Origin: an uncultured Candidatus Rokubacteria bacterium
GTDB taxonomy: Bacteria; Methylomirabilota; Methylomirabilia; Rokubacteriales; CSP1-6
Assembly (NCBI GenBank): GCA_963771355.1
Contig: CAVYTA010000006.1
Coordinates: 192,001-256,000 of the forward strand
Direction: 5' to 3'
DNA length: 64,000 bases
In this document: positions 45,609 through 57,184 of the stretch, one piece after another
Numbering within the stretch: position 1 is the first letter of the stretch
Layout: each line of letters begins with the position of its first letter
The notes under the pieces: generated by a model
Database searches by the model: none
The model's input: the letters and a program-made list of their open reading frames with translations, nothing else
What the model was told of the DNA's origin: nothing
Position numbers and translations under genes: made by a program

Positions 45609-45609
<1 letters not shown>

Positions 45610-46571
45610 TGAGCGATACCCTCGCGTTCCTGCTCCAGTACGGCTACGTGATTCTCTACGCCTGCGTGCTGGCCGAGCAGGTCGGGCTTCCGGTCCCCGC
45701 GGTGCCGGTCCTGCTCGGGATGGGCGCGCTCGCCGGCGCCGGAGAGATGAGCCTGCCGCTCGCGCTCGGCGTGGTGCTGGCAGCGTCCTTGCCGCCGGAC
45801 CTCGTCTGGTACGAGCTCGGGCGGCGCCGTGGTCCGCGAGTGCTCGCTCGCATCTGCGCGATCTCGCTCGAGCCGGACTGGTGCGTCCGGCGGACCGAGA
45901 GCATGTTCATCCGGTTCGGCCGGAAGCTCCTGCTGGTCGCGAAGTTCCTGCCCGGGCTGAGCGCGGTGGCCTCGCCGCTGGCCGGGTCGGCCGGCGTGGC
46001 GCGGTGGCAGTTCGTCCTGCTCGACGTCACCGGCGCGCTGCTATGGGCCGGAACCTGGATGGGGATCGGCTATGCTTTCAGCGAGGCCCTGGACGTGGTG
46101 GCGGGTTGGGTCGCCCGGCTCGGCGGCTATGCGCTGCTGCTCGCGGGGGCCGCCTTGGCTGCCTACGTCGTGTTGAAGTATGCCAAGCGGCAGCGCATCT
46201 TCCGAGAGCTGCGGATGGCGCGCATCACCCCCGACGAGCTCAGGCGCCGGATCGACGCCGGCGACGGCGGCCTGGCCATCATCGACACCCGATCGGCGCT
46301 GGACGTGAGGGCGGTGCCCTTTCTGATCCCCGGCGCGATACGGATCGACGCCGACGAGGTCGAACGGCGCCACGCCGAGCTGCCGAAGGACCGAGAAATC
46401 GTCTTGTACTGCACCTGACCCAATGAAGCCACGAGCGCCCGGGTGGCGCTACGGCTCAAGCGACTCGGCTTCATGCGGGTCCGGCCCCTTCTGGGTGGCA
46501 TCGCGCTGTGGATGGACCAGAAATTCCCCGTGGAGGACATCCCGGAGCTTTTACTCGGTCCGCGCCCATGA
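45609..46571 (+). CDS. DedA/VTT-rhodanese fusion, probable selenoprotein (UGA at 46416-46418)
   Basis: DedA motifs EQVGLPVP and AKFLPG. The rhodanese domain continues in frame past TGA as YCT-U-PNEATSARVALRLKRLGFMRVRPLLGGIALW to a stop at 46571. Confidence 0.82.
46427..46456 (+). promoter_or_regulatory. Putative bacterial SECIS element
   Basis: AGCGCC-CGGGT-GGCGCT hairpin with lower stem AGCC/GGCT. Loop starts 22 nt after the UGA. Confidence 0.65.
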
Positions 46572-53444: not shown

Positions 53445-54545
53445 ATGAGCACTCGTCGGGATTTCCTTCAGACCACCACCGGCGCCCTCGCCGGGCTCGC
53501 CTTCGTCGGGTGCGACCTGCTGCGCGCCGCGCCCGCGCGGGCGCAGGCCAGGCGCCGCGAGGTCGTCGTCAACGGCACGCGCGTCAAGACGGTGGATGTG
53601 CACGCGCATTGCGCGGTGCCCGAGGCGCTCGCGCTCATGAACCAGAAGCTCGCCGGCCCTGGCCTCCGGACCGACCTCGACATGGCGACCGAGGTCTCGC
53701 TGCGGCTGCGGACCATGGACGAGCAGGGGATCGACATCGAGGCGCTCAGCATCAACCCGAACTGGTACAAGGCGGATCGCGACCTGGCCAAGCAGATCAT
53801 CAGCATCCAGAACGAGAAGCTGGCGGCGGCGTGCGCCGCCAACCCGGACCGCTTCGTCGCCTTCGCCACGGTGGCGCTGCAGCATCCGGAGCTCGCCGCC
53901 GAGCAGCTCGAGGAAGGGGTCAAGAAGTACGGGCTTCGCGGGGCCGCCATCGGGGGGAATGTCAACGGGATGGAGATCAGCGACCCGAAGTTCCACCCGT
54001 TCTGGGCTAAGGCCGAGCAGCTCGGCGTGGTGGTATTCATCCATCCGCAGGGCGACGGCGCCCCCGCCCAGCTCGATCAGCGCTTCAAGGGCAACGGCTA
54101 TCTCGGCAACGTGATCGGCAATCCGCTCGAGACCACCATCGCGCTCTCGCATCTGATCTTCGAGGGCACGCTCGACCGGTTCCCGGGCCTCAAGATCTGC
54201 GCCGCCCATGCGGGGGGCTTCCTGCCGTCGTACTCGGGCCGGTCCGACTTCGGGTGTCCGACCCGGCCCGATCTCTGCCCGGGCGGGACGCACGGACCCA
54301 TCAAGAAGCGGCCGTCGGAATACCTCAAGCAGCTCTACTTCGACACCATGGTCTTCAACACGGAAGGCGTGCGTCACCTCGCCGCGGAGGTGGGCGTAGA
54401 CCGCCTGGTGGTCGGCACCGACTATCCCTATCCCTGGACGAAGACCGCGGTGGACCTGATCCTCCAGACGCCGGGGCTGAGCGACGCCGACAAGGCGGCC
54501 ATCCTGGGCGGCACCGCCGCCCGGCTGCTGGGGATCAAGAGCTAG
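53445..54545 (+). CDS. Tat-exported amidohydrolase_2 (ACMSD-like)
   Basis: MSTRRDFL Tat motif, DVHAH, AHAGG and GTDYP. Confidence 0.9.
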   Translation: MSTRRDFLQTTTGALAGLAFVGCDLLRAAPARAQARRREVVVNGTRVKTVDVHAHCAVPEALALMNQKLAGPGLRTDLDMATEVSLRLRTMDEQGIDIEALSINPNWYKADRDLAKQIISIQNEKLAAACAANPDRFVAFATVALQHPELAAEQLEEGVKKYGLRGAAIGGNVNGMEISDPKFHPFWAKAEQLGVVVFIHPQGDGAPAQLDQRFKGNGYLGNVIGNPLETTIALSHLIFEGTLDRFPGLKICAAHAGGFLPSYSGRSDFGCPTRPDLCPGGTHGPIKKRPSEYLKQLYFDTMVFNTEGVRHLAAEVGVDRLVVGTDYPYPWTKTAVDLILQTPGLSDADKAAILGGTAARLLGIKS

Positions 54546-54548
54546 CGG

Positions 54549-54983
54549 CTAGAGCGTCTTCACAACCTCGGCCGGCCATGCCCGGGCGTCGACGCGGGCG
54601 TGCCACTCCTTGATCTTGCCGTCCCGGTCGATCACCACGCCCACGCGCTGGGCGCCCTTCTGCGGGTCCGTGTTGGCGCCGTAGGCGGTGCCGATGTTGC
54701 GGTCGGTGTCGCAGATGAGCGGGAAGTTGAAGTGGTACTTCTCGGCGAACGCCTTGTTCTCGGCAGGGGTGTCGAACGACACCCCGAGGATCACGGCGCC
54801 CTTCTTGTCGTAGTCGGCCTTGAGGTCGCGGAACCCGCAACCCTCCGCCGTTCAGCCGGGGGTGTCGGCCTTGGGGAAGAACCACAGCACGATCGCCTTG
54901 CCCTTGAAGTCCGACAGCTTCACGGGGTTGCCGTTGTGGTCGCGGCCGGTGAAGTCGGGGGCCTTGTCGCCTGCCTTCAGCAT
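54549..54983 (-). CDS. bcp: Peroxiredoxin BCP/PrxQ, probable selenoprotein (UGA at 54852-54854)
   Basis: MLKAGDKAPDF...WFFPKADTPG-U-TAEGCGFRD...ILGVSFD forms one continuous frame. UGA sits at the peroxidatic Cys of PxxxTxxC. Confidence 0.88.
54822..54845 (-). promoter_or_regulatory. Putative bacterial SECIS element
   Basis: GAGG-G-TTGCGG-GTT-CCGCGA-CCTC hairpin. G-initial loop starts 18 nt after the UGA. Confidence 0.7.
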
Positions 54984-54999
54984 ATGTCCTCCGCTGGTG

Positions 55000-55821
55000 T
55001 CACTGGTTCTGGGTTTCGAGCAGGGCCGCGAGCGCTCGGTAGGCGCGACGGGCGCGCTCGGCGGCGGGAAGATCGGCGGTGGCCCGGGACGGCGCCTCCA
55101 CCGCGAGCGGCAAGTCCGGGGGCAGCGCGGCCACGAGATCGCGCAGGGGCAGAACGCCCTCGCCCGGAAGTAGCCGCCCCGTTCGCGCCTCGCGGATGAG
55201 CGCGGGCGAGTCGGTGGGGCCGGGCATGTCCGCGGACGCGTCGCAGATCTGCGCATAGGGAAACAGCGACGGGTCCACACCGGCGATATGCGCCGGCAGC
55301 CCTCCGGATCGGCTGAAGTGGAGCGCGTCCACCACGACCGAGGCGTTCGCGCGGTTCGCGCGGCCCACCATCTGGACGGCGTGGGCGAGCGTGGGGACTC
55401 CGGTGTAGACGGCGAACTCCAGCCCGACCCGAAGCCCGTACCGGGCCGCCCGGTCGCAGAGATCACCGAAGCGCTCGAGGGTGCGGGCCTCGTCCGGCTC
55501 GGCGCTCATGACGAGGACATGCCGCGCGCCCAGGCGCGCCGAGACTTCGAGAAAGCCCTCCGGGATACCCACCGGCCGGTCGGGCTCGAAGCGCAGAAAT
55601 TCCGTGTCGAGCACGGTGATCCCGGTGTCCTTGAGGCGCGCGAGCGTGTCCCGCAGCAGGGGCCCCTCGCTCAGGATGTCATAGGGAGGGACGCCCACGC
55701 TCGGCGGAGCGGTGAGCCGGATTCCGACCGCGTGGAAACCCGCCGCCGCCGCCACCGACACCAGCTCGGGCGGTGTCGTGTCCAGCACGGTCAGGTGAGC
55801 CAGCGAGAGCTGACGAGGCAT
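55000..55821 (-). CDS. Sugar phosphate isomerase/epimerase family TIM barrel
   Basis: LSLAHLT, GLEF, VDALHFSR, QICDA and RLLPGEG motifs. Confidence 0.85.
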   Translation of the reverse strand: MPRQLSLAHLTVLDTTPPELVSVAAAAGFHAVGIRLTAPPSVGVPPYDILSEGPLLRDTLARLKDTGITVLDTEFLRFEPDRPVGIPEGFLEVSARLGARHVLVMSAEPDEARTLERFGDLCDRAARYGLRVGLEFAVYTGVPTLAHAVQMVGRANRANASVVVDALHFSRSGGLPAHIAGVDPSLFPYAQICDASADMPGPTDSPALIREARTGRLLPGEGVLPLRDLVAALPPDLPLAVEAPSRATADLPAAERARRAYRALAALLETQNQ

Positions 55822-55837
55822 GGGGGAGACGAGGGGG

Positions 55838-57184
55838 TCAGCCCAGCAGCAGCTCGCAGGTATCCAGCCAGACCTGGGTGGTGAGGGCGAGCGATTCCAC
55901 GTCGACGCGCTCGTCGTTCCCGTGGAAGCGCCCGGCCATCGCCTCGGCGGTGAGGGCCCGCGAGAAGAGCCCGAAGCCATACGCGACGGCGCCCCGGTCG
56001 CGGAAATACGGCGCGTCGGTGAACCCCACGATCATCCGCGGCAGGAGGCTGGCCCCCGGATAGTGGGCGTCCACCACCCGGCGGAGCACGTCCCAGAGCG
56101 GCGTGCCGGTGGGCGACATCGAGGACGGCTTGGAGAAGAGCGTCTCCACCTCTACTTGCTCGGAGAGGTCGCCGAGGGCCTTGTCGAGATGGCGACGCAC
56201 CTCGTCCGCGTCGTCCCCCGGGATGGTGCGGATGTCCACCTCGATGTCCACCGCGTCGGGGATGATATTGGTCTTCGCGCCCGCGCTGCACATGTTCGGC
56301 GAAAACGTGGTGTGCGTGGCCGACCAGAGATACCGGGCCAGGGCGGGAGGCAGGCCGGCGATGGCGTCGTCCACCTGGGCCGGATCCAGCAGCGCCGCCT
56401 TCACCGCGGGCGGGAGCGTGAGCGAGTTGACGAAGCCCGCCCAGATCTCGTCCACGTACGGGGACGGCCGGTACTCCGCCAGGCGGCTGACCACGTGCGC
56501 GGCCTTCACCAGCGCGTTGTCCGCGCCATAGGGCATGGAGCCGTGCCCGGGCGTGCCCTTCACCTTGAGCCGGCGCCAGGCCACGCCCTTCTCGCCCACG
56601 TGGACGGTGACGCTCAGCGCGTCGCCGTGGGCGCTGACGGTGCCGCCGTTCTCCGTGAGGAGATAGTCCGCGTCGAGCGCGTCCCAGTGGCGCTCGCAGA
56701 CATGCCCGGCGCCGAGGGTGCCGCCCGCCTCCTCGTCGGCGCAGGCGAGGTAGACCAGGGTGCCCTTGGGCCGCCAGCCGCGCCGTGCCAGCGCCTTGAG
56801 CGCCACCGCCTGCGAGGCGGTGAGGTTGAGCATGTCCAGCGCGCCGCGCCCCCAGACCTCGCCGTTCACGAGCTCGCCCCCGAAGGGATCACGGGTCCAG
56901 GTCTTGAGATTCACGGGCACCACGTCGGTATGGCCCATCAGGCAGAGAGTGGGCGCATTCGGGTCGGTCCCCTCGATGCGGGCCACGAGGCTGGCGCGGC
57001 CCGGCGCGCCGTCGGGCTCGTAGACCTCGACGTCGAGCCCGCTGCCCTGGAGATAGGTCCGCAGGACGTCGGTGGTGCGCACCTCCTGACCCGAGGCCAC
57101 GGTGCCGTCGTTCACGCACTGGTTCCGGATGAGCTGCTGGAGCAGCTCCACGGTCTGATTGGTCAGGGCATTATCCACCGGCAT
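55838..57184 (-). CDS. M20/M25/M40 family metallopeptidase
   Basis: GHTDVV, GRGALD, ADEE, GFTD and HGNDE motifs. Confidence 0.92.
   Translation of the reverse strand: MPVDNALTNQTVELLQQLIRNQCVNDGTVASGQEVRTTDVLRTYLQGSGLDVEVYEPDGAPGRASLVARIEGTDPNAPTLCLMGHTDVVPVNLKTWTRDPFGGELVNGEVWGRGALDMLNLTASQAVALKALARRGWRPKGTLVYLACADEEAGGTLGAGHVCERHWDALDADYLLTENGGTVSAHGDALSVTVHVGEKGVAWRRLKVKGTPGHGSMPYGADNALVKAAHVVSRLAEYRPSPYVDEIWAGFVNSLTLPPAVKAALLDPAQVDDAIAGLPPALARYLWSATHTTFSPNMCSAGAKTNIIPDAVDIEVDIRTIPGDDADEVRRHLDKALGDLSEQVEVETLFSKPSSMSPTGTPLWDVLRRVVDAHYPGASLLPRMIVGFTDAPYFRDRGAVAYGFGLFSRALTAEAMAGRFHGNDERVDVESLALTTQVWLDTCELLLG

Follow-up and report, generated by a model that had tools for sequence, protein, structure and literature searches.

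Selenocysteine (Sec)-containing peroxiredoxins are an established group of bacterial selenoproteins, as the original prediction had stated, with a TxxU 'Prx' family catalogued since 2005. In the Sargasso Sea survey, passages of the paper describe the TxxU Sec-peroxiredoxins as the second largest family, with 43 genes and the assignment COG1225 (PMC1088965); the corresponding passages on complete genomes report 12 Sec-Prx genes and 5 Cys-to-Sec events, 3 in Anaeromyxobacter (PMC1794560), and Sec-peroxiredoxins are listed in the available part of a 2026 review (PMC13188914). The same part of that review counts PrxU of Eubacterium acidaminophilum (NF040737) among the experimentally supported Sec proteins (PMC13188914). 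Like the protein described here, PrxU carries Sec at the peroxidatic site, but it is a larger, AhpC-like protein (233-position model), and the genome under study has an AhpC/PrxU-like Sec gene of its own at a separate locus (C5:239367). Our literature search, which covered few subscription papers and no supplements, found no biochemical study of any Sec-BCP/PrxQ, and the main texts on BSepDB (PMC13326102) and deep-Sep (PMC12013277) make no mention of peroxiredoxin, Prx or Rokubacteria.

The gene analysed here adds to this known selenoprotein family and is real, strongly conserved and well supported. It lies in the window, by which we mean the whole 64,000-nt stretch of DNA that was analysed, and its features are as follows.

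54549..54983, minus strand: BCP/PrxQ-type peroxiredoxin gene, 144 codons with a single TGA read through
54983 (start ATG) and 54551-54549 (stop TAG), minus strand: ends of the Sec-peroxiredoxin frame
54988..54992, minus strand: Shine-Dalgarno-like GGAGG, 4 nt 5' of the ATG
54852..54854, minus strand: TGA within the frame, predicted to encode Sec44, the peroxidatic residue of PxxxTxxU (with Pro37 and Thr41)
54837..54839, minus strand: Cys49 in helix alpha2, the predicted resolving residue of UxxxxC, encoded within the SECIS stem
54711..54713, minus strand: Cys91 (FPLICD) in a beta strand, a subfamily marker and probably not catalytic
54645..54647, minus strand: Arg113, the conserved peroxiredoxin active-site Arg
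54823..54843, minus strand: SECIS upper stem-loop, 9-bp stem, GUU loop at 54834-54832, 17 nt past the UGA
54815..54850, minus strand: full extent of the predicted hairpin, with a lower stem of 4 bp that varies
45609..46571, plus strand: DedA/VTT-rhodanese gene with a CxU motif, TGA at 46416-46418 (LYCT-U-PNE)

The open reading frame track breaks the gene into two fragments, 54852..55466 (ending PKADTPG) and 54549..54794 (81 aa), and the proposal that both belong to one 144-codon frame holds: with the TGA read as Sec, the translation is 144 aa long and contains PKADTPG-U44-TAEGC49. Motifs resembling the GGAGG are found upstream of most orthologues displayed. The claim that annotation pipelines split such genes is borne out by the 81-aa downstream piece, which is stored in NCBI/ENA within a cluster of 1243 members. 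A scan of 54300-56100 for promoters and terminators returned 0 sites, and within the window Rfam gave no match and ARAGORN no tRNA. The convergent amidohydrolase gene (53445-54545, plus strand) ends 3 nt from the end of the Sec-peroxiredoxin gene, and an intrinsic terminator was not found there. The upstream TIM-barrel gene was matched in 16 of the 88 other loci and the remaining window neighbours in 0-5, many of these loci being short; since neighbours are so seldom shared across the 88 other loci, we see no conserved redox operon.

The protein belongs with the BCP/PrxQ peroxiredoxins, and this part of the original prediction stands in the sense that BCP/PrxQ is the nearest of six classes by both sequence and fold, albeit below the NCBIfam Bcp cut-off. 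PF00578 spans residues 5-126, across the TGA position, with an E-value of 1e-38. The best NCBIfam models are NF006960 (Bcp), at 108.5 bits below its cut-off of 140, and NF053650 (PrxQ), whose cut-off is likewise not reached, and NF040737 (PrxU) scores 47.7 bits, under its cut-off of 270. COG1225 is the Bcp group. Seven of the ten PDB matches are named BCP/Bcp and the remainder peroxiredoxin or AhpC/TSA, and Cys relatives in the databases carry the name peroxiredoxin Q/BCP. The AlphaFold model, built from a 58-row alignment, has a pLDDT of 96.9, shows the thioredoxin-like Prx fold and places residues 42-53 in one helix; in Foldseek its best fold matches are BCPs (TM 0.88-0.93), with AhpE structures also within the top 10. 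Passages of PMC4749874 give Pxxx(T/S)xxC as the motif that defines peroxiredoxins, and here it reads P37-KAD-T41-PG-U44, with Sec in place of the final Cys. U44 aligns with the peroxidatic Cys and Arg113, invariant in all 58 alignment rows, with the catalytic Arg of solved BCPs. We predict a peroxidase with selenium at its catalytic site and, since the sequence has no signal peptide, a cytoplasmic location.

Among solved Cys-type BCP/PrxQ structures, 3drn (Sulfolobus Bcp1), 3hjp (Bcp4) and 5enu (Burkholderia) share the fold with TM scores of 0.88-0.91, and S. tokodaii 2ywn with 0.75. These enzymes have the same Pro/Thr/Arg active site, catalytic position and CxxxxC spacing, but at 32-38% identity the Sec protein differs from them in having Sec for the peroxidatic Cys, a shorter loop before Arg113 and Cys for Ser in the LxSD strand. 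The last of these residues, Cys91, is Cys in 76 of 83 distinct loci rows, and the solved BCPs have Ser there. With the catalogued Sec-Prx the gene shares PxxxTxxU, PF00578 and a UGA followed by a bacterial SECIS, as far as the main-text passages of the catalogues go (PMC1088965, PMC1794560, PMC13188914); in those passages, which exclude supplements and sequence lists, we found no description of the compact 144-aa subfamily or of SECIS covariation.

The in-frame TGA is conserved well beyond this genome. Among 41 related genomes, all 9 close matches, which are 78-99% identical and include this genome's own copy, contain one TGA. Scanning GTDB genomes yielded 119 confirmed loci, of which the best 80 were kept, mostly from Rokubacteria/Methylomirabilota and then from Myxococcota and Acidobacteriota; together with the 9 close matches these make 89 loci, or 83 distinct rows once duplicates are removed. 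Codon 44 is TGA in 86 of the 89, down to 55% identity, and TGC or TGT (Cys) in the other 3, one of which (L097) comes from a genome flagged as unpublished. Full-length frames continue downstream of the TGA across the loci from Rokubacteria, Myxococcota and Acidobacteriota. In the databases the site is Cys in 111 of the best 120 of 1082 matches, a selection biased towards the query. An in-frame UGA that aligns to Cys in homologues and is conserved in relatives is the pattern by which a selenoprotein gene is recognised. On a quick version of the tree, in which 53 of 112 forks are open and which does not give the direction of change, 6 Sec/Cys changes are required, at least 3 of them on starred branches.

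The hairpin that the original prediction described, with a GUU loop at +18, was recovered as an upper stem of 9 bp, pairing +9..+17 with +21..+29 around a loop at +18..+20, with folding energies of -13.5 kcal/mol locally and -21.8 kcal/mol as a whole. It agrees on all four counts (loop 3 nt, stem 9 bp, spacing 17 nt) with the bSECIS model given in the accessible part of PMC13188914, which specifies a loop of 3-9 nt, an upper stem of 4-16 bp, a G in the first two loop positions, a spacing of 16-37 nt and an MFE <= -7.5. The z-score is -3.1 for +1..+42, where 1 of 200 shuffles was equally good, and only -1.2 for the 60-nt stretch from the UGA, where 24 of 200 were as good. We discarded a pattern-only SECIS filter as evidence because in this 70% GC genome it does not separate TGA from TAG ends, passing 144 of 3979 and 171 of 4168, respectively. 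As a lone hairpin means little at 70% GC, we rely on conservation and covariation. Across 62 distinct genes sharing 75% identity or more, codons 48-53 are fixed at 97-100%, with Gly48 written GGT in 60 and Gly50 written GGG in all 62; elsewhere in the same genes GGT makes up 37 and GGG 91 of 735 Gly codons, and the 3 Cys loci are without the Gly codon pattern of the Sec forms. Stem pairing reaches 98.6% in a set of 55 distinct UGA variants (7 of 495 cells unpaired), and slid controls pair at 28-53%. The second base of codon 49 pairs with the third of codon 52, and this pair covaries, both sides having changed in 10 of the 55 variants (8 C-G, 2 U-A); no shuffle of 500 reached 10 double changes at one pair, although related sequences can beat a shuffle control, and the covariation is confined to one of the nine stem pairs and reflects a small number of independent events. 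L103, one of the two rows with U-A, is from a genome flagged as unpublished.

Taken with the observed frame, motif, UGA conservation, covarying hairpin and Sec machinery genes, these results lead us to conclude, with a probability of about 0.93, that the in-frame UGA of this BCP/PrxQ-type gene is decoded as Sec through the downstream SECIS and that the product is a Sec-catalytic peroxidase. In the mechanism that we propose, SelB-GTP-Sec-tRNA would bind the GUU-loop hairpin and insert Sec44, which, held by Pro37, Thr41 and Arg113, would attack H2O2 or organic hydroperoxides and become a selenenic acid. Helix alpha2 would then unfold locally, letting Cys49 resolve the selenenic acid by forming a selenenyl-sulfide within the molecule, and a thioredoxin/thioredoxin reductase pair would re-reduce the bond; the genome encodes one thioredoxin reductase above cut-off and three thioredoxins. 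An atypical two-residue cycle running from Sec44 through Cys49 to thioredoxin and its reductase is the most likely arrangement because it follows from established PrxQ chemistry (PMC4749874, in part). When selenium is lacking, translation would stop at the UGA and leave a 43-residue product; a BCP paralogue of the Cys type, encoded at another locus (C4:202967-203395, 42% identical), may then take over.

The resolving Cys of the UxxxxC spacing survives from the original prediction as a residue that is present, and its function is something that we infer; the codon also contributes to the SECIS stem, and the Cys is missing from 12 Sec relatives. It is rather unlikely, yet worth weighing, that Sec is inserted and Cys49 is no working resolver, the enzyme being a 1-Sec-like peroxiredoxin that a small thiol or a different protein regenerates, with Cys49 kept partly for the SECIS stem, to which its TGC codon supplies three base pairs. 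In keeping with this, Ser, Leu or Thr replaces Cys49 in 12 of the 86 Sec loci (L088, L089, L102-L105, L107-L109, L111, L113, L116), which fall into two separate clades. Against it, 60 of 62 close orthologues have retained Cys49, though a Ser with synonymous compensation in the Arg52 codon is possible and is used by Acidobacteria, in most of whose rows a synonymous change in the SECIS makes up for that in the Cys49 codon. In addition, passages of PMC4749874 put the resolving Cys in helix alpha2 in about 60% of PrxQs. All 111 full-length Cys-form matches among the best 120 of 1082, which are biased towards the query, keep Cys49, and on the quick tree one clade holds 10 Sec rows without Cys49 whose 4 Cys sisters retain it. 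Two events of Cys49 loss on that tree are suggestive only. We continue to favour the Sec44/Cys49/thioredoxin cycle.

Decoding of the UGA as Sec is matched by the gene content of the genome, in which the Sec machinery whose absence would have spoken against the original prediction was found: tRNA-Sec (selC) lies at C7:111447 (ARAGORN; Rfam RF01852, 69 bits), selA and selB are 1.7 kb downstream of it and selD is on C4, all three above cut-off, and SelB has its mRNA-binding winged-helix domains. Of 15 other Sec-form genomes tested, 12 have selA, and it was not found in 3, namely G002 (78% complete), G005 (89% complete) and G046 (completeness not given). Two Cys-form genomes tested (G041, G042) possess selA, so losing the machinery does not account for the Cys forms. 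A reading of UGA as Trp, in a genetic code like 4 or 25, would fit database entries with PGWTAEGC, as W occupies the site in 6 of the best 120 of 1082 database matches and in 14 of 15 listed 144-aa cluster members. We give it next to no credence, however, as TGA is the commonest stop, ending 1635 of 2726 long genes, and RF2 is present, which together indicate site-specific recoding and not a changed code; furthermore, the sole tRNA with a TCA anticodon is tRNA-Sec, Trp at position 44 would abolish the catalytic residue, and JGI called the four closest W entries on contigs below 3 kb, probably by automatic code choice. Sec-form copies in the databases that have Trp as the catalytic residue (P0003-P0006, P0025, P0036 and cluster members), which among the top matches are all JGI calls from short contigs, likely arose by an automatic choice of an alternative code that the Sec UGA had triggered. 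This artefact could mislead searches for code-4 organisms.

Decoding as Sec presupposes that the TGA is no error, and the concern about 54852-54854 was settled by independent sequence: in the 8 of 24 listed read runs whose contigs were compared, contigs bridging the TGA in DNA runs X5, X12 and X14, from three separate studies, differ only elsewhere, and a 273-nt contig of RNA run X17 matches 54734-55006 with 0 differences, which shows presence in an RNA library and not transcription level or strand. A sequencing error or nonsense mutation (pseudogene) is therefore already refuted, even in an assembly that is not break-free (at least one Prx-like gene, on C5 near 476.6 kb, is frameshifted), given this agreement and the same TGA followed by full-length frames in 86 of 89 loci from Rokubacteria, Myxococcota and Acidobacteriota.

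The gene belongs to a large set of selenoprotein genes. In this genome, which its relatives place in Rokubacteria (99.8% complete, 2.2% contamination, 8 contigs), a profile search returned 24 Prx/TlpA-like loci (25 matches), 13 of them with TGA at the catalytic position, one being frameshifted. Among 40 UGA candidates hand-picked from longer lists elsewhere in the genome, 30 align through the TGA with a redox family or an established Sec family (11 AhpC/TSA, 6 CMD/AhpD, 5 UGSC, 2 rhodanese, 2 formate dehydrogenase and 1 each of PDO, DsbA-like, OsmC and ArsC-like), and 8 gave no family match across it. With the Sec-BCP and DedA-rhodanese genes included, the genome has at least 32 selenoprotein genes, 12 of them with an AhpC/TSA domain. 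The DedA/VTT-rhodanese fusion matches NF041203 across its TGA, over the rhodanese part and below cut-off. It is the second UGA gene within 9 kb that had been cited against a chance nonsense mutation; it is real and 8.4 kb away, but counts for little beside the orthologue data.

Several other UGA genes deserve mention. A gene of the CoA-transferase fold (PF01144; C7:248670, about L158:1459-2328) has an in-frame TGA within EHS-U-PA; 15 of 15 matches from 41 genomes, the most distant at 43% identity, contain one TGA, its codon position is shared by the 12 loci that were inspected, and a hairpin with a GGC loop is conserved in most of these. As a Sec family it is absent from the review by term search of the part available (PMC13188914) and from our literature search, and it is more novel than the Sec-BCP gene. 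A DUF411-family gene (C2:110813; HRSPT-U-GCC) is a possible selenoprotein; its Pfam match does not span the TGA, and the family is not named in the accessible text of PMC13188914. The peroxiredoxin at C6:1073583 has PxxxTxxU and a Cys three residues on, with no clear hairpin past the UGA (-6.4 kcal/mol), and possibly uses an atypical SECIS. Two adjacent Sec genes about 570 nt apart on one strand, C6:1824664 (Prx-like) and C6:1824098 (TlpA-like), possibly encode a peroxidase and its reductant. The Prx-like gene at C5 about 476550-477000, whose catalytic codon is TGA and which shows apparent frameshifts, is an assembly error or a broken gene. A KdpD-like piece with an in-frame TGA in its DUF4118 match (C4:61480) was rejected as probably a broken gene, its flanks not being KdpD.

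Finally, because the family has been catalogued since 2005, our result is mainly an annotation fix: an antioxidant gene stored in databases as fragments of 43 and 81 aa, or with Trp at its catalytic site, is corrected. Passages of the review state that aerobes rarely keep selenoproteins and report a Methylomirabilota MAG with 63 predicted selenoproteins, the record for the phylum, with a co-assembly caveat (PMC13188914); the near-complete genome analysed here speaks for large selenoproteomes in Methylomirabilota, and its gene for cytochrome c oxidase subunit I makes oxygen respiration probable. Being small and soluble, and having relatives in nature with Cys, Sec+Cys or Sec alone, the peroxiredoxin would be a convenient system for measuring what Sec contributes. 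It is conceivable, if on balance doubtful, that Sec frees PrxQ from its resolving Cys, the alpha2 Cys having been lost twice, only on Sec branches and within the limits of the SECIS stem, in an oxygen-respiring soil lineage in which about half of the peroxiredoxin/TlpA-fold enzymes may have changed to Sec, counter to the tendency of aerobes to shed selenoproteins.
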